From positions 68,335 through 132,334 of the forward strand of contig CBFGIT010000005.1 in assembly GCA_965648905.1 (NCBI GenBank): a stretch of 64,000 nucleotides of DNA, written 5' to 3'. A model generated the notes under the pieces. That model did not search any database and was not told where the DNA came from. It saw only the letters and a list, made by a program, of their open reading frames with translations. Position numbers and translations under genes: made by a program. Of this stretch, positions 1-8,604 are shown piece by piece. Every line of letters begins with the position of its first letter. Positions within the stretch are counted from its first letter, which is position 1. The stretch comes from a candidate division WOR-3 bacterium (lineage in GTDB: Bacteria > Hydrothermota > Tepidihabitantia > Tepidihabitantales > Tepidihabitantaceae).

Positions 1-567
1 CGTTGCTGGATGTTTGTAGGTGACTACAAGGACTCCTGCAACAAGCGCGACTGGCAGATTCCGTTCAAGGCCGAGGCCAGTGTTGCGCAGTGGATCGTCA
101 TCGAAATGAACGGTGACGGCTTCCACTGGGGTGTCAGGAAGCCCGGTGACTACGCTAGTGACTGCGTGTGGCTGAAGTTCCGCAGCAACTACGATGTCCG
201 GGTCAGTTTTTCCGGGTTTGATAATCTGATTTCCAAGACCCCGGATGACTGTATCGACGATACCATCGAGGTATGGTACGCCTTCAGCGACGATGCCAAC
301 AACCCGCCGCCGTTCGGCGACCCGGCCTGGAAGACGCCGGAAGAGCTGAACCAGTGGGCCATCGACGTGAGGGACAGCTACGACCTGCACTGGACCGGCT
401 GGCTGAAGCACATCTGGTGCCGGATTCACGTCAGCCCGTGCAATACCTCGTGTGAGTACGTCGATCCGAACTGGGCGACAATTAACCTGACGCTCCAGCG
501 CATAAAACCCTGGATCGACCCGGCAACCGGGAACTTCCGCAGCATGCCTCAGTTCCCTTACCAGTAA
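1..567 (+). CDS. Cys-rich beta-strand-rich protein, 5'-truncated by the window; candidate fibre/pilin-like subunit
   Basis: Frame is open from base 1 (RCWMFVGDY...) to TAA at 565-567; 7 Cys and many Trp; 9 nt before the next gene. Confidence 0.5.
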   Translation, partial: RCWMFVGDYKDSCNKRDWQIPFKAEASVAQWIVIEMNGDGFHWGVRKPGDYASDCVWLKFRSNYDVRVSFSGFDNLISKTPDDCIDDTIEVWYAFSDDANNPPPFGDPAWKTPEELNQWAIDVRDSYDLHWTGWLKHIWCRIHVSPCNTSCEYVDPNWATINLTLQRIKPWIDPATGNFRSMPQFPYQ

Positions 568-576
568 GGGAACAGG

Positions 577-2175
577 ATGAGCATAGCTCCCCCTGCCAGA
601 CGGCTATGCTTGTTCATCGGGGCAATCTGGACGTGCGCGCTCGGGTCGCTTTCCGTGACTCCGCAGCTCACTGAGCTGTCCCTGCCTCAAGGCGCGCGTA
701 AGCGACTCAAGTTCACGGTCGTTAACGAAGACCCGCAGAGTACCCGTACGATTCGCTACTACCCGGTGTCGTTCTGCCAGAACGAGGAGGGCGCGTACGC
801 TCTTGCACCAGAATCAGTGTCGCCTTATTCCTGCCACGAATGGTTCAGACTCGACACGGTCGAGCTGATGCTCGGGCCTGGCGAGGGGAAAGAGGTGTTT
901 GTCGAGCTGGTGGTTCCCAGCGGTGCACGCGGAACTCGATTCGGTGCGGTGGCATTCGAGATGCTGCCTGTTCCCGTGCCCGGTGCGTGGGCATCGGCCG
1001 GCCTGGTGATAAGAATGCCCGCGTTCGTCGAGGTCACTATCACCGGCACCCGGGGCAGGAAGAGCATCGAAGTGACCGACATCAAAGTTGAACCGGCCCG
1101 GGCCGTCCAACGGCAACTGCCGGTCGAAGTGAAGGAAGACGCGCTGGCCGTGGTCGTCTCTGTGCGTAACACGGGTGAGGTTTCGCTCCCGGTACGGGGC
1201 AGGCTGCTGTTTCGAGATGAATATCGGCGTCGGTACCGGGAGCTGCCGCTCGGCGCAGGTGGAGCCCTGCTGCCCGGGGCGAAGACAAGGCTGATTTCGG
1301 TCACGCCCAAGGTCAGACCGGGTAGCTACGTGGTTGAGGCCAACTTGAACATGGGAGGTGTCAGTCCGGCCAAGGCGAGTGTCCCGGTCGAAATAACGAG
1401 CACGACCAGCCGCACGGCCGGAGCCTTGAGCTCGGCCCCGGTTCTGGACTTGGCCGTCAGCACCGAGAAGATCGAACTGACTGCGCCGGCGCGGTCAACG
1501 CGCACGAACTATGTTGTCTTCCGTAATGAGAGCAACAAGGAACAGGTGCTCACGGCCGAGGTGACCTATCTGGCTTCGGATGGCAGCGGCCGTGTGATTG
1601 AGAGCGACAATCCGGGACGTCACGCTGACTGCCGGGACTGGATTACGTTCGAGAAGAACATGGTTCGCATTGCGCCCCACTCGAGCGAGGCGGTCCGGCT
1701 CACAATCAAAGTGCCGGATACGACTCCAGGCGGCAGGTACGCCTGTCTGTATTTCGAAGACTCTGCTGCCGTTCCCCAAGACAAGAAAGGTCCGCGTGCC
1801 TCGGTGTCAATACCGGTGTTCCTGACCGTGACCGGCAACTATCCACGCCGGGTCGAGATTGCTCGGGTGAACACGAGCAAGACACCGCTCGGCGTCCAGG
1901 TGAGCTTGGCAAATACCGGGGCGGTTCACGTCCGCCCTAAGGGCCGGGTTCTTGTCCGGCAGGCGATAGTCCCGGGTGCGAGCTCGGACGACAGCTACAA
2001 GAGCCTTGGTTCGTTCACGCTCGACGACGACGTGCTGGTGCTACCGGGCGATACTGTCGTACTGGCCGGGACATATCAGGGCGACGTGCGCAAGGGTCAC
2101 TACCGGCTGGACGTGAATATCGAGTGCGGGGCGGGATTGAGTCTGTTCAAGTCAGAGGAGGTGATCGTCAGATGA
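577..2175 (+). CDS. Exported chaperone-like protein with two tandem Ig-like modules (DUF916/DUF3324- or PapD/EcpB-like)
   Basis: Signal-like N-terminus; internal duplication: LSVTPQLTEL..CHEWF..GPGEGKEV..RNTGEVSLPVRG vs LAVSTEKIEL..CRDWI..APHSSEAV..ANTGAVHVRPKG. Confidence 0.6.
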   Translation: MSIAPPARRLCLFIGAIWTCALGSLSVTPQLTELSLPQGARKRLKFTVVNEDPQSTRTIRYYPVSFCQNEEGAYALAPESVSPYSCHEWFRLDTVELMLGPGEGKEVFVELVVPSGARGTRFGAVAFEMLPVPVPGAWASAGLVIRMPAFVEVTITGTRGRKSIEVTDIKVEPARAVQRQLPVEVKEDALAVVVSVRNTGEVSLPVRGRLLFRDEYRRRYRELPLGAGGALLPGAKTRLISVTPKVRPGSYVVEANLNMGGVSPAKASVPVEITSTTSRTAGALSSAPVLDLAVSTEKIELTAPARSTRTNYVVFRNESNKEQVLTAEVTYLASDGSGRVIESDNPGRHADCRDWITFEKNMVRIAPHSSEAVRLTIKVPDTTPGGRYACLYFEDSAAVPQDKKGPRASVSIPVFLTVTGNYPRRVEIARVNTSKTPLGVQVSLANTGAVHVRPKGRVLVRQAIVPGASSDDSYKSLGSFTLDDDVLVLPGDTVVLAGTYQGDVRKGHYRLDVNIECGAGLSLFKSEEVIVR

Positions 2176-3404
2176 GCCGGACAAGGATTCTGCTGGTGGT
2201 ACTTTCTGTCTTGTGCGTCGGGGTTCAAGGCCAGCAAGCCGACTCTGAAGCGAAGGTCCGGGCGGCTGAGGAGCAGCCCTCGGTTACCAACGTCTTCTTT
2301 GAGACCGACCTGGTTCAGGCACTGCACGACATCTCGAGCCAGACCCGGATACCGATTGTCACTGACGGCAGCGTTGCCGGCATGGTTTCGGTCGAGCTGG
2401 TCAATCTGCCGCTTGAGGAGGCGCTGGCCCGGCTGCTTTACCCGCTGGGGTATGCGTTCCGACGCATCGAGGACTACTATCTGGTCGGCAACGTCAATCC
2501 GGAAAGTCCGTCGTTCTACCTGCTGGCAATTACCGAGGTGCTGCGGCCGAGCTATCTCCGGGCCGAGGACGCCTACAAACTGCTGCCCGACCAGTACCGG
2601 CAGTACCTGAAGGTCAGCCCGGAGACCAACACCCTGGTGGCGGCCGCACCCCGTGGTCTTGTCGACAAAATCAAGCAGGACCTTGCCCGGATTGACAAGC
2701 CCAAACGGAAGGTGCTGATTGAGGCACTGGTGACGGAGATTTCGACTGAAGCGGCCCGCAGTCTGGGGATTGACTGGAGCGGGGTGCTGTTCCGGGGTGG
2801 CGATACGATTTTGCGGAGCAACGCCGACCTCTCCGGCATTGCCGATACCAGTCTCGGCCTGGTGCTGAAGCGCGTCACCGGCCGGCTCGGTGACTGGGGC
2901 TACGGACTGACGCCCTCAATTCAGGCGCTGGTTCGGGACGGCAAGGCCAAGATCAAGGCCAGCCCGAAGCTCGTTACCCTTGACGGCCAGGCTGCGGAAA
3001 TCGTCGTCGGCAAGGAACAGTACTACCAACTGGCGACCGGTGGCGAGCCGTACTACTACCTGCGGCTGGAGAAGATTGAGGTTGGCGTTTCGATGACTAT
3101 CACGCCCTACGTTGCCGACAACGGCGACATCACCGTAATGGCCGAGCCGGTGGTGAGCGACGTGGTCGGTTCAAGCCTGGGGCAGCTTCCGATTGTCAGC
3201 AAGCGCAAGGCAAAGACCAGGATTGTGGTCCGGGACGGCGAGAACGTGGTCATCGGCGGGCTGACCATGCGCAGCGAGCAGACAATTCAGTCGCGCATCC
3301 CGCTGCTCGGCAGCATCCCGATTATCGGGTTCCTGTTCAGCCACACGCGCAAGGTGGTCGAGGACAACGAGGTGGTGATTATCATCACCCCGCGTCTGCT
3401 CTAG
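2172..3404 (+). CDS. Secretin (PilQ/GspD-like outer-membrane channel)
   Basis: ATGA overlap with the upstream stop; signal peptide; N0-like VTNVFFETDLVQAL; KVLIEALVTEI, ASPKLVTLDGQAAEIVVG, VRDGENVVIGGL, IPLLGSIPIIGFLF, VIIITPRLL secretin motifs. Confidence 0.9.
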   Translation: MSRTRILLVVLSVLCVGVQGQQADSEAKVRAAEEQPSVTNVFFETDLVQALHDISSQTRIPIVTDGSVAGMVSVELVNLPLEEALARLLYPLGYAFRRIEDYYLVGNVNPESPSFYLLAITEVLRPSYLRAEDAYKLLPDQYRQYLKVSPETNTLVAAAPRGLVDKIKQDLARIDKPKRKVLIEALVTEISTEAARSLGIDWSGVLFRGGDTILRSNADLSGIADTSLGLVLKRVTGRLGDWGYGLTPSIQALVRDGKAKIKASPKLVTLDGQAAEIVVGKEQYYQLATGGEPYYYLRLEKIEVGVSMTITPYVADNGDITVMAEPVVSDVVGSSLGQLPIVSKRKAKTRIVVRDGENVVIGGLTMRSEQTIQSRIPLLGSIPIIGFLFSHTRKVVEDNEVVIIITPRLL

Positions 3405-3417
3405 ACCGGATTACAGC

Positions 3418-4074
3418 ATGGACACTGGCGGTGAGTCTGGGACAATGACCTCTCGGTTCGCGTTTCTCATATTGGTCGTGGGTCTGCTGGCCTCCGAGGC
3501 ATGCGCCCAGTCCAACACGCTCGTTGACCGACTCGGGGTTCAGACGATGACCTATTTCAAGCTCGGTACGTTCTGCCCGTGCGGCACGGCATTGAAAGAG
3601 GAGTTCGGGACCCGGGTGCCAATCGGCCTCGAGGCCCGGGCCGGCACGAAGTACGGCTTTGGTGCTGGTCTCTCGGTCGGGGTCTGGTGGGCTACCGCGG
3701 GCAAAGACATATCGACCTTCGTGCCGGTTGCGCTGGCCGGACACTACTCCCGGCCTCTGTTGGACGGCGCGGTCGTACCGTTTGGCGGGCTGTTCCTCGC
3801 CTACAACTCGGCTCAGCTCTACTTTGCGGCAGGCGATACGTTTGTTCGCGCCCGAGGCGCGGGTATGACCGGCGGGCTGTTGCTCGGGGTTGAGGCGCCG
3901 TTCGTGGACAAGTTCAACCTGCTGGCTGACTGCCGGTTCGGGTTTGGCCGAGGCGCAATGGAGTTCGATAGACCGGTCGGCGAGATTCCGGCCGGAACAA
4001 GCAATGTCACGTTCTCCAACACCAGCCTGAACCTGGGCATCAGCCTTGGTTTCTCAGACATCTGTCTGTGGTAG
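3418..4074 (+). CDS. Outer-membrane beta-barrel protein (OmpA/OmpW-like); start may be 3445
   Basis: Signal peptide; alternating amphipathic Gly/aromatic strands; C-terminal [10 protein letters not shown]. Confidence 0.6.
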
Positions 4075-4088
4075 GTGACGGCTGCGCT

Positions 4089-4652
4089 GTGTCCGGCCAG
4101 AGTCAGAGCTTGACCTGGCACTCGACGACGATCATCGGGGTGCGACGTTCAGGCCGGGTTGCGATGGCGTCAGACGGACAGGTGACGCTGGGTGAGACCG
4201 TGGTCAAGCAGTCGGCCCGCAAAATCCGCAGTCTGCGCGATGGTAGGGTTCTGGCTGGTTTTGCGGGCGCCAGTGCTGATGCTTTCACTCTGCTGGAGCG
4301 GTTTGAAGCCAAGCTCGACGAGCACCCGGGTAACATTGCCCGAGCTGTGGTCGAGCTGGCCAAAGACTGGCGTACGGACCGGGTGCTCAGGCGTCTGGAA
4401 GCGATGCTCGGAATCATGGACCGCGAGAAGTCGTACGTTGTCTCCGGTTCGGGCGACGTTATCGAGCCGGATGACGGCATCGTCGCCATCGGCTCGGGCG
4501 GTGCCTATGCGCTGGTCGCTGCGCGCTGTCTGCTCGAACACACCAGTCTACCGGCAGACAAGGTAGCCCGCGCCGCGATTGAGGCTGCGGCTGCGGTCTG
4601 CGTCTATACCAACCGCGAAATCACGGTTCAGACAATTCCGGCGCGCGGCTGA
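4089..4652 (+). CDS. hslV: ATP-dependent protease subunit HslV
   Basis: STTIIGVRR (N-terminal Thr nucleophile after processing), [32 protein letters not shown] start at 4089 inferred. Confidence 0.95.
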
Positions 4653-6178: not shown

Positions 6179-6209
6179 CAGCCACCAAACCAGACGAAAG
6201 GGACCAACG

Positions 6210-6584
6210 TTGAATCATGTCGCGCTGTTCGCACTGTTTGCGTTCGTGATGGTCGGCTGCGGCGGAGCCCCGCAGCAGCCCAAGGCACAGGCTCCGGTCC
6301 AAGACACGTCCGCACCGGTCGTGACCGAGGTATCGTTCAGTCGGGATATTCAGCCGATCTTCTCGGCCAGTTGCATGCCGTGCCATGCTGCCGGCGGCAG
6401 GGCCGCCAAGTACGACCTGACATCCTACGACCGAGTCATGGCCGTGGTCGTTGCCGGTAAGCCTGACTCAAGCGAGCTCTACACGATTCTGGACCAGGGT
6501 AAGATGCCGCCTTCGGGCAAGCTCGACTCGGCCCGGCTTGCGACAATCAAGCAGTGGATTACGGAAGGCGCCAGAAACAACTGA
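6210..6584 (+). CDS. Monoheme cytochrome c lipoprotein (Planctomycete cytochrome C-like)
   Basis: Lipobox MVGC; SFSRDIQPIF..CMPCH..GKPDSSEL..MPP..IKQWITEGA; TTG start at 6210 inferred. Confidence 0.85.
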   Translation: MNHVALFALFAFVMVGCGGAPQQPKAQAPVQDTSAPVVTEVSFSRDIQPIFSASCMPCHAAGGRAAKYDLTSYDRVMAVVVAGKPDSSELYTILDQGKMPPSGKLDSARLATIKQWITEGARNN

Positions 6585-6596
6585 CGCCTCCCCAGC

Positions 6597-6626
6597 TTGA
6601 CAGCGGCGCGGTCACGCACTTAGAAT
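6597..6626 (+). promoter_or_regulatory. Sigma70 promoter
   Basis: TTGACA-N18-TAGAAT upstream of the SD GGAG and 6659. Confidence 0.55.
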
Positions 6627-6658
6627 CAATGGTGCCTGACCACTGAAAGGAGACGTGC

Positions 6659-7024
6659 GTGAGACTCATCCTGGTCTTTGTTGCCGTGCTGGCCATTGCC
6701 TGTCAGAAGTCTGAGCAGGTCAAGACCGACCCGTCGTTCAGGGACGACGTCCAGCCGATCTTTGATGCCAGTTGTGCTACTTCGGGCTGCCACTCAGGCG
6801 CGACCCCGAGCGGCAGCTATGACCTCACCAGTCATGCAGGCACGCTGGGTACGGGAACCGACACGATCCCGAACGTAATTGCCGGCAGTGCTGATTCGAG
6901 CAAGTGCTACCGCCGCATCACCGGTGATGAAACACCCCAGATGCCGCAGGGTGCCACACCGCTTGATAACATGAAGTCCGCGACCATCCGGAACTGGATC
7001 AACCAGGGCGCGAAGAACAACTAG
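6659..7024 (+). CDS. Second cytochrome c lipoprotein paralog, CX4CH heme motif
   Basis: Lipobox AIAC; SFRDDVQPIF..CATSGCH..MPQG..IRNWINQGAKNN. Confidence 0.8.
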   Translation: MRLILVFVAVLAIACQKSEQVKTDPSFRDDVQPIFDASCATSGCHSGATPSGSYDLTSHAGTLGTGTDTIPNVIAGSADSSKCYRRITGDETPQMPQGATPLDNMKSATIRNWINQGAKNN

Positions 7025-7858
7025 ATGATTCTGGCAGCACTCCGCCGCCGGACAGCACTCGTGTTGCTTACCGGCTTTGTGCTCGCCTTTTCCTCTTCGG
7101 GCGGGCCGCCGGACGGCAAGACCGGCCGACCAGGCGAAGGTACGTGCGCTGACTGCCATTCAGGCGGAAGTGGTACGGCCGACTCGACTGAGCTGGCCGG
7201 CTTTGCTGGTGCGGTCTACGTTCCTGACTCGACCTATCACCTGACACTCACGGCTCGGTATCGAGGTGCGACGCGCTGGGGATTTGAGCTGACCGCAGTC
7301 AACCAGAGCGGGGCCCGGGCTGGGCAGCTTACCGTGACCGACCCGACGAACACCCAGTTCTCCAATGCCGGGCCAGGCTACGTGAAGCAGACCAGTGCCG
7401 GTACGTTTCGCGGCAACCCCGGCCCGGTCTCGTGGAGTTTTGACTGGCGCGCTCCGTCGGCGGGCACCGGCCCGGTCAGGTTCTACTGGACTTACAATGC
7501 GACCAACAACAACGGCAGCACGACCGGCGACATTCCCGGACAAGACAGCATGCTCGTGACCGAGTCGTCGAGCATTGTGGCTGAACCGGAACGACCCGAC
7601 CGTCTGTTTGTGCGTTACCAGAACCCGGCCCGTGAGCGCATCGTGCTTGAGTACCAGGGCCGGGCTCGTGAGCCGGTTCGCATCTACTCGACCGAAGGCA
7701 GGCTTGTGCGCCGGCTCAACCCGACTCAGGTCGGAGACATGCTACAGGCGGTCTGGGATGGCCGCGACCGTTCTGGTGAGTTTGTTCCTGCGGCCAGCTA
7801 CGTCATCCGCTTCGGGCGAGAGCTCAAGTCGGTAGTACGGGTCGAGGTTGTCCGCTGA
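7025..7858 (+). CDS. Exported Reeler-like domain protein with CxxCH and a FlgD/T9SS-like C-terminal domain
   Basis: FSSSGGPP..GRPGEGTCADCH; WGFELTA; WSFDWRAP; C-terminal IYSTEGRLVRRL..WDGRDRSGEFV..SYVIR. Confidence 0.75.
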   Translation: MILAALRRRTALVLLTGFVLAFSSSGGPPDGKTGRPGEGTCADCHSGGSGTADSTELAGFAGAVYVPDSTYHLTLTARYRGATRWGFELTAVNQSGARAGQLTVTDPTNTQFSNAGPGYVKQTSAGTFRGNPGPVSWSFDWRAPSAGTGPVRFYWTYNATNNNGSTTGDIPGQDSMLVTESSSIVAEPERPDRLFVRYQNPARERIVLEYQGRAREPVRIYSTEGRLVRRLNPTQVGDMLQAVWDGRDRSGEFVPAASYVIRFGRELKSVVRVEVVR

Positions 7859-7896
7859 CACTTTTCCGGCCCGAGTTTAGCTAGAAGGAGTCCTGC

Positions 7897-8604
7897 ATGG
7901 CCATCCTGTTCTTACTCCTCGCCTTTCCCGGCGCACGCATCGCCAATCTGCCGACCGGACCGGTTATCGACAACGGCACCTGGCTACTCAGTATCTCTCA
8001 CCGGTTTCTGTCGGCTGAAGACAACAGCCGACTTGGCAACCCACTGAACTTTCTCAAGGACGCCAATGTCAGGTTCGCCGCAGAACGCGGATTCGGCTCT
8101 GGCCTGGCCCTAGGCCTGAGCTACACCAACTACAACTACGAACTCGGAGCCAGCGCGCAGTGGGCACCGATTAGTCTGGTCACGGGATACTGCGGAGTCG
8201 GCACCAACCTGATTGAACGCAAGCTGAGTAACACCTGGCTGAACGCGGCAGTTGCCGGCCATCTCGCGCCGGTCAGTCGACTGCATCTTGTTCTGCTGCC
8301 GCGCCTGACGACCAACACCGAGGACTGGTTTCTGTCGTGTGGACTTGGGGCCAAGGCCGACCTGCCGGCAGACCTATCAGTCGGCATCGAGACCGAACCG
8401 GTCATTCTCGGCCCGGAGCCGCAGTCAGGTTCGCGCCTGCTGGCCTGGAACCTTGCGGTTGACAAGGAACTCGGCTGGCACAACTTCACCCTGGTTGTGG
8501 GCAATAGCTGGCACCAGTCCATGCCCGGCTGGTTTGCTCTGGCCAACCGCGATATCTTCAAGGGCGTTTTCCGGGTCGGGTTCAATATCCTAAGAAAGCT
8601 CTAG
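7897..8604 (+). CDS. DUF5777-like outer-membrane beta-barrel
   Basis: ANLPT, LSISHRF, GWHNFTLVVGN, FRVGFNILRKL match my recollection of the DUF5777 pattern. Confidence 0.65.
   Translation: MAILFLLLAFPGARIANLPTGPVIDNGTWLLSISHRFLSAEDNSRLGNPLNFLKDANVRFAAERGFGSGLALGLSYTNYNYELGASAQWAPISLVTGYCGVGTNLIERKLSNTWLNAAVAGHLAPVSRLHLVLLPRLTTNTEDWFLSCGLGAKADLPADLSVGIETEPVILGPEPQSGSRLLAWNLAVDKELGWHNFTLVVGNSWHQSMPGWFALANRDIFKGVFRVGFNILRKL

Follow-up and report, generated by a model that had tools for sequence, protein, structure and literature searches.

Layout of the locus

The DNA analysed here (the window) is a 64,000-nucleotide stretch of a candidate division WOR-3 genome (assembly GCA_965648905.1, contig CBFGIT010000005.1, G000:C5:68335-132334 in our coordinates), which opens on four tightly linked genes for a pilin-like subunit, a tandem two-module chaperone-like protein, a secretin and a small, probably beta-barrel protein (Table 1). 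We refer to the first three as the cassette. A preliminary description of the window had proposed that these genes form a hybrid pathway, in which a chaperone-bound, disulfide-stabilised subunit leaves the cell by a secretin in place of an usher. All four open reading frames (ORFs) were confirmed along with their spacing, namely 9 nt between ORF1 and ORF2, an ATGA overlap of ORF2 and ORF3 at 2172-2175 and 13 nt between ORF3 and the ATG at 3418, the first one of ORF4; the ATG at 3445 is the likelier start of ORF4 because it opens a signal-peptide-like stretch.

The 5' part of the operon had been thought to lie outside the window, which the upstream sequence corrects: only 156 nt of ORF1 are outside, and its true start at G000:C5:68179 has a Shine-Dalgarno-like site and a signal-peptide-like beginning. 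The next gene upstream is btuB, transcribed divergently and with a cobalamin riboswitch ahead of it (L001:15138-15314, minus strand, some 690-860 nt before the window begins), so the operon of subunit, tandem chaperone, secretin and small barrel is complete. Inspection of the upstream genes and the locus found no usher, ATPase, prepilin or standard type II secretion (T2SS), type IV pilus (T4P) or Tad set adjoining the cassette. Among proteins named as WOR-3, one is 98% identical to the chaperone and one 58% identical to the subunit.

Table 1 Features of the cassette and of the sister cassette; positions are those of the window unless a locus is named
Feature	Position	Strand	Remarks
Pilin-like subunit, ORF1 (P0004, 240 aa)	1..567	+	First 52 codons (156 nt) lie upstream of the window
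Predicted donor strand, subunit residues W70-V80	52..84	+	Alternating hydrophobic positions
Tandem two-module chaperone-like exported protein, ORF2 (P0001, 532 aa)	577..2175	+	WxLIP/EcpB/CfaA-like, without C-terminal membrane anchor
Compact secretin, ORF3 (P0002, 410 aa)	2172..3404	+	STN, Secretin_N and secretin domains; member of the cassette-linked clade
Small exported, probably beta-barrel protein, ORF4 (P0003, 209 aa)	3445..4074	+	Alternative start 3418; accessory
Sister cassette	L148-L150, L152-L158 (e.g. L149:6667-10367)		Two small exported pilin-like ORFs, single-module chaperone, barrel-like protein

The subunit is predicted to have a pilin-like fold with a free arm

Scans of Pfam and NCBIfam gave no match for the subunit, no Pfam family is common to its 147 aligned homologs, and a sequence search of its profile against solved chains returned only a chance match to a signal peptide; a profile search recovered, at E<=0.001, 323 clusters (50% identity). 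The preliminary description had raised the possibility of an incomplete immunoglobulin (Ig) fold, and structure prediction, fold search and Foldseek point to a fold like that of chaperone-usher (CU) pilins with an unpaired N-terminal arm. The model (predicted local distance difference test score, pLDDT, 93.4) is a beta-sandwich over residues ~84-217, in which residues 58-83 have no strand partner; these include the arm W70-V80, itself modelled at a pLDDT of about 92. In the fold search of 48,161 solved chains, CU pilins and adhesins take all of the first ten places (Z 7.0-8.3), led by CsuA/B (Z 8.3, rmsd 2.8, 114 aligned) with FimG, CsuE, FimH, CS17, CS20, CfaE, CupE and CfaB after it. Pilus or fibre subunits occupy 28 of the top 31 rows, and TasA and the archaeal cannulae are among the matches.

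The arm is conserved in character. Positions 70, 72, 74 and 80 are hydrophobic in 68, 83, 96 and 95% of the 147 homologs, position 78 is alanine in 73%, and positions 71, 73, 75, 77 and 79 are hydrophobic in just 6-17%; donor strands likewise alternate between hydrophobic and polar residues, according to a preprint on WxL pili (bioRxiv 10.64898/2026.10.17.759780). Twenty-four long members of the family (322-743 aa, some truncated at contig edges) have the core alone, at the C-terminus, and lack the arm motif, which by analogy is the tip-adhesin architecture known from CU and WxL pili. This genome has no such adhesin-like paralog at E<=0.01, and its subunit and chaperone are single-copy. Together the unpaired, alternating arm of the model and the armless tip-like paralogs fit an incomplete fold that would be completed by donor-strand complementation and exchange. 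A complex prediction for chaperone residues 23-532 with subunit residues 20-240 scored 0.00 in two runs, which is no answer and counts neither way.

Kinship with known pilins was sought by other routes as well. Profile comparison detected no homology between the subunit and EcpA, and none of the 147 homologs matches the WxL domain PF13731 at E<=0.05, WxL and SCPU clusters appearing only as leads below 0.9. WxL pilins are absent from the lists of both the fold search and Foldseek, and may nonetheless be kin. One subunit homolog, WP_324668112.1, is recorded in the cultured bacterium Geochorda subterranea, the envelope of which is reportedly diderm (PMC11456536).

That the subunit is disulfide-stabilised, as first suggested, holds in part. 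Cysteines are common in the homologs (C65 in 84%, C107 in 61%, C199 in 60%, C203 in 48%), and 10 of the 147 lack all five that were scored; C107 and C199 are missing from the long adhesin-like members. C65 and C199 covary with an odds ratio of 10.8 among kin that are not independent, and 39 members keep C65 without C199; from these sequences an inter-subunit C65-C199 disulfide is suggested as a lead. Disulfides are thus accessory and not a family trait.

The chaperone is a tandem duplicate without a membrane anchor

ORF2 had been described as an exported protein with two tandem chaperone-like modules, and this is upheld by an internal repeat, detected by BLAST at E 1e-10 with 252 columns of 23% identity, which makes the modules homologous, together with matches to WxLIP, EcpB and CfaA. 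Its own match to WxLIP_PGBD/DUF916 is weak and below cut-off (1.5e-4); the cut-off of PF06030 was passed by one of ten family members scanned, that of the window falling below it. A 48-row chaperone profile run against solved chains found the Enterococcus WxLIP at E 3e-7 and EcpB at 9e-4. In Foldseek, on which the fold assignment rests, WxLIP and CfaA gave the best TM-scores in the list for the model (pLDDT 88.5) at a target TM of 0.46-0.53. The two-domain Ig periplasmic chaperone of the CU pathway is present here as a tandem duplicate, and none of 48 chaperones has a hydrophobic 19-residue stretch in its last 80 residues that could be a C-terminal membrane anchor.

The secretin belongs to a separate clade

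ORF3 is a secretin, as had been proposed, matching Pfam Secretin (PF00263) at 1e-40 and above cut-off, with weak STN and Secretin_N matches. It falls below the NCBIfam cut-offs of PilQ (154 vs 284), GspD (148 vs 351), MshL, HofQ and SctC, and aligns with the phage pIV structure 7ofh (414 aa) at E 2e-34. Placing it in a phylogeny, a check that the preliminary description had named, gave a clade of its own, apart from the other secretins of the same genomes, of which the trees hold a part. In a first tree of 89 rows, from which duplicates and two fragments were excluded, 38 linked and 4 then-unplaced secretins separated from 47 others of the same genomes with a Shimodaira-Hasegawa-like approximate likelihood ratio support (SH-aLRT) of 99. 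Without five long rows, 42 cassette-type secretins separated from 42 others with support 100/99, and a grouping of WOR-3 PilQ with the cassette secretins of WOR-3 was rejected by the approximately unbiased test (p-AU 0.0005). Our genome, 99.6% complete, has three secretins, one at a T4P locus beside pilT, one at a Tad locus and one in the cassette.

The secretins of genomes G149 and G157, which are not rows of the trees, passed a 1e-90 threshold; with neither chaperone nor subunit beside them, they were not counted as cassette members. In eight loci (L067, L070, L071, L048, L163, L162, L060 and L062) a second, divergent secretin-like gene follows directly 3' of the cassette secretin, and the tandem genes possibly form a hetero-oligomeric pore.

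The cassette is conserved across phyla

We assembled 50 subunit loci. Ten belong to WOR-3; a single pattern scan across species genomes supplied the other 40, which are labelled Zixibacteria, Ignavibacteria, Thermotogota, Bacillota or unclassified. The chaperone is followed by the secretin in 40 of the 50, directly adjacent in 39, and the other 10 stop at contig edges; no subunit locus with room for a secretin lacks one. Four of the ten cut loci have their chaperone-secretin junction on a different contig, and the chaperone and subunit genes of L060 and L074 are divergently transcribed. When 201 genomes of the phylum were sampled, the same 11 held the subunit, the tandem chaperone and the clade secretin, and a twelfth (G146) held a divergent copy of the cassette. 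This neighbourhood survey, the one by which the proposed linkage could have failed, found it kept across the WOR-3, Zixibacteria, Ignavibacteria, Thermotogota and Bacillota records.

Additional genes accompany some of the loci. A small ORF labelled AraC-like helix-turn-helix from its sequence lies upstream of the cassette in six (L029:6333-6683, L031:5159-5596, L034, L049, L052 and L059), and an extra single-module chaperone with additional exported ORFs precedes the subunits in L049, L052, L059, L067, L070 and L071.

The fourth gene is accessory. ORF4 has no match in Pfam, NCBIfam or PDB sequences, and its alternating pattern and C-terminal aromatic residue indicate that it is probably a small beta-barrel. 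The preliminary description had counted a small outer-membrane barrel as part of the operon; the ORF is present, and its family occurs in 4 loci of one WOR-3 family only, being replaced or absent elsewhere. In 12 other loci the secretin is followed by a ~305-aa family, one member of which is weakly PorV-like, and in a Zixibacteria record a single 770-aa ORF (L056:12356-14665) joins a FadL-like barrel to the cassette secretin.

Ushers and secretion motors are not linked to the cassette

The absence of a visible usher, ATPase or prepilin partner, first noticed in the window, extends beyond our own locus and its upstream region. The usher family PF00577 was found in none of 48 genomes, with a positive E. 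coli control and completeness known for 10. Our genome likewise showed no PF00577 usher, and a tblastn search of it with EcpC gave no match; very divergent ushers could escape both searches. The 50 loci, many of them short, were searched with the genome's own PilB, PilT, CpaF, PilC, PilD, PilM, pilin and TadB, and only one PilC was found, on the opposite strand. No prepilin motif occurs in the 50 loci.

Sister loci have a single-module chaperone and a barrel-like protein

Weaker matches to the chaperone occur in another 46 of the 201 genomes. In 10 of 11 such sister loci examined, small exported ORFs and a single-module chaperone stand with a protein of 580-690 aa, which has a barrel-like N-terminal part and two C-terminal SdrD_B/transthyretin-like domains. 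The barrel family is absent from all 12 secretin-type WOR-3 genomes, and 5 of 50 genomes searched match its C-terminal domains only. Profile comparison detected no homology of the sister protein with EcpC, nor of our subunit with the sister-locus pilins (probability 15%). We therefore call the sister protein usher-like by its architecture alone, a candidate divergent usher. Acidobacteriota, Pseudomonadota and others have similar proteins. The pairing of a single chaperone with a barrel and of a doubled chaperone with a secretin suggests a swap of pores, in which the exits would be interchangeable, and that the second chaperone module may stand in for the docking domains of the pore.

A proposed assembly pathway and its alternatives

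We consider it probable that the subunit, the doubled chaperone and the secretin build a periplasmic donor-strand-exchange pilus, which leaves the cell through its own secretin instead of an usher. The observed gene content and order, the chaperone and secretin families, the separate secretin clade and the lack of any usher found carry this proposal together with the pilin-like fold and free N-terminal arm predicted by the model. The steps of assembly are taken by analogy from CU and WxL pili. Subunit and chaperone would be exported by Sec, and the chaperone's own strand would complete the subunit fold until, at the periplasmic face, the W70-V80 arm of the next subunit displaced it; folding energy would then drive growth, so that no ATPase would be required. 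The long members, having an acceptor core and no arm, would cap the fibre tip where they are present, our genome having none, and the fibre, being thin, would pass through the secretin. Most speculatively, the second chaperone module may provide a second loading site, normally given by the periplasmic domains of the usher. Adhesion or a biofilm matrix is the likely function. Of the hybrid pathway first proposed, the fold, the linkage and the separate secretin clade lend weight to a chaperone-bound subunit with a dedicated secretin, through which it would leave; the disulfides and the barrel proved the weaker parts.

A broader form of this proposal, for which we see even chances, is a separate chaperone-secretin pathway. 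Here the doubled soluble chaperone would be an assembly platform that catalyses the exchange of donor strands by two loaded subunits; the fibre would ratchet out through an ATPase-free secretin. The pathway would span at least five diderm groups and be one of several interchangeable exits (an usher, a barrel with two transthyretin-like domains, a secretin, or none) for one ancient chaperone-pilin core.

Several observations weigh against a self-sufficient pilus pathway. The fold scores of the subunit are middling, a Z of 8.3 being near the level that the tool calls common for unrelated sandwiches, and Foldseek gave no subunit match at E<=0.001, the best being the CFA/I pilin CfaB at 1.1e-3. 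The Foldseek list of the chaperone is topped by ciliary ASH-type repeat proteins, with poor TM-scores. The genomes and loci include close relatives, and the counts are therefore not independent. In G153 the clade secretin is not beside the chaperone and adjoins unrelated genes (L159), and G217 has an extra clade secretin without a chaperone on its 3-kb contig. Type II/IV ATPases of the T2SSE family are encoded elsewhere in all 48 genomes, our own has a second PilB/GspE-like gene 27 kb upstream (G000:C5:40566-42254), surrounded by response-regulator genes and with neither PilC nor pilins next to it, and two genomes of unstated completeness (G226 and G228) show one secretin each, linked to the cassette, despite their ATPases. 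The secretin gate, finally, would have to open without a motor.

Among the rivals, it is unlikely, though the best placed, that subunits leave through the secretin singly or in complex with the chaperone and polymerise outside, as in curli or TasA, with the small barrel as surface anchor or shuttle. The presence of TasA and cannulae among the fold matches and the barrel-like genes that often follow the secretin, including the FadL-like fusion, are in keeping with it, and ElrD reportedly polymerises with the chaperone alone present (bioRxiv 10.64898/2026.10.17.759780). However, no energy source for monomer export is encoded nearby, whereas polymerisation in the periplasm provides its own; many loci lack the barrel gene, and a 510-residue chaperone with its cargo would be bulky as a secretin substrate.

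We give less credence to a secretin that serves a type II or type IV machine encoded elsewhere, with the chaperone-folded protein as the dedicated substrate that it would push out. The ATPases of all 48 genomes, the second PilB/GspE-like gene and the two genomes with no second secretin seen speak for such a motor in trans, but the 50 loci hold no ATPase, peptidase or prepilin match, the cassette secretins track the cassette and not the hosts' type IV systems, and our secretin scores far under the PilQ and GspD cut-offs. Slightly less probable again is that there is no pilus, the subunit being a periplasmic, sheath or S-layer-like beta-sandwich and the secretin a separate, HofQ-like passage for, e.g., DNA or solutes, as the middling fold scores, the HofQ-like size and sub-threshold HofQ matches of the secretin and its unlinked copy in G153 would allow. 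Against it stand the predominance of pilins in the fold list, a conserved arm with no strand partner, the tip-adhesin-like and tandem subunit paralogs and the tight co-occurrence of the three genes.

Relation to known systems

The WxL or Elr pilus, known from Bacillota such as Enterococcus faecalis, shares a homologous chaperone (ElrE, a WxLIP of the DUF916-DUF3324 type) and the lack of an usher. It likewise has small pilins with an N-terminal donor arm and large tip proteins whose pilin domain is C-terminal, and tipless operons occur. It differs in its monoderm host, its single membrane-anchored chaperone and its sortase-anchored fibre, whereas the cassette has a doubled, anchorless chaperone and then a secretin, and its pilins have a WxL domain, which 0 of 147 cassette subunits match in Pfam. 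No sortase or LPxTG protein was noticed among the recurring neighbour families of the 50 loci, in which no search aimed at sortase was made. In the accessible text of the WxL preprint the system is confined to Bacillota, mostly Bacilli, the sortase anchor is optional in the definition, and the words secretin and diderm do not occur; its supplement could bear on the distribution (bioRxiv 10.64898/2026.10.17.759780).

With the alternate and archaic CU pili (CFA/I, CS17, ECP, Csu, CupE) the cassette shares the predicted subunit fold, an EcpB/CfaA-related chaperone, a two-part tip-adhesin architecture and the lack of an ATPase. It differs from them in having a secretin in the operon position of the usher, a tandem chaperone and no usher found, and its subunit, larger than CU pilins, has an additional hairpin region at the N-terminus and a KxWIDPxTG tail that is conserved. 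Secretins are known exits of ATPase-driven machines and filamentous phage, the phage pIV secretin passing a filament. The cassette secretin is of the same pore family as those of T4P (PilQ), T2SS (GspD), Tad (RcpA), type III secretion (T3SS, SctC), HofQ and phage pIV, and in its compact size is near pIV; it differs as a separate clade, below the cut-off of every NCBIfam model that it matches, in loci that lack an ATPase, platform protein or prepilin bar the one opposite-strand PilC.

Donor-strand fibres such as that proposed here are also formed by the environmental fibrils TLP-1a/b (CryoSeek, PMC11494351), TasA and the archaeal cannulae. TLP-1b, at 237 residues, is similar in size to the subunit and aligned at Z 6.7 (rmsd 3.6, 138 aligned); a profile search against solved chains found no sequence match of the subunit to TLP-1, TasA or cannulae. 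Neither secretin nor operon occurs in the main text of the TLP-1 paper (PMC11494351).

Flanking genes

Two neighbours were rejected as members of the system: btuB, as divergent and riboswitch-controlled, and hslV (4068-4652), since the cassettes of relatives have other genes downstream. Further into the window, 6200-8604 is a single run of ORFs for two small cytochromes c of the Planctomycete type, which start like lipoproteins, for a protein with a heme motif and a FlgD-like tail, and for a DUF5777 barrel. Large exported proteins with C-terminal sorting domains like those of type IX secretion are frequent near the loci (G000:C5:47072-54373; L029, L032, L033, L039, L041, L056).

Significance

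In diderms, chaperone-assembled pili are known to depend on an usher as both assembly catalyst and pore. The cassette resembles CU and WxL pili in its working, yet lies outside both, with no usher and no WxL domain or anchor, and outside the type II and type IV systems, with no linked motor. It is real, conserved and apparently unpublished: no such cassette is described in the full-text literature searched, which covers few subscription papers, and a secretin exit for a chaperone-built pilus appears to be undescribed. If the proposed pathway is true, catalysis and pore would be separate in a pilus that joins donor-strand chemistry to a secretin, secretins would be openable by polymerisation alone, a new use for them, and the WxL-type chaperone would extend to diderms. 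The minimal cassette of three genes makes the pathway testable in a laboratory strain.

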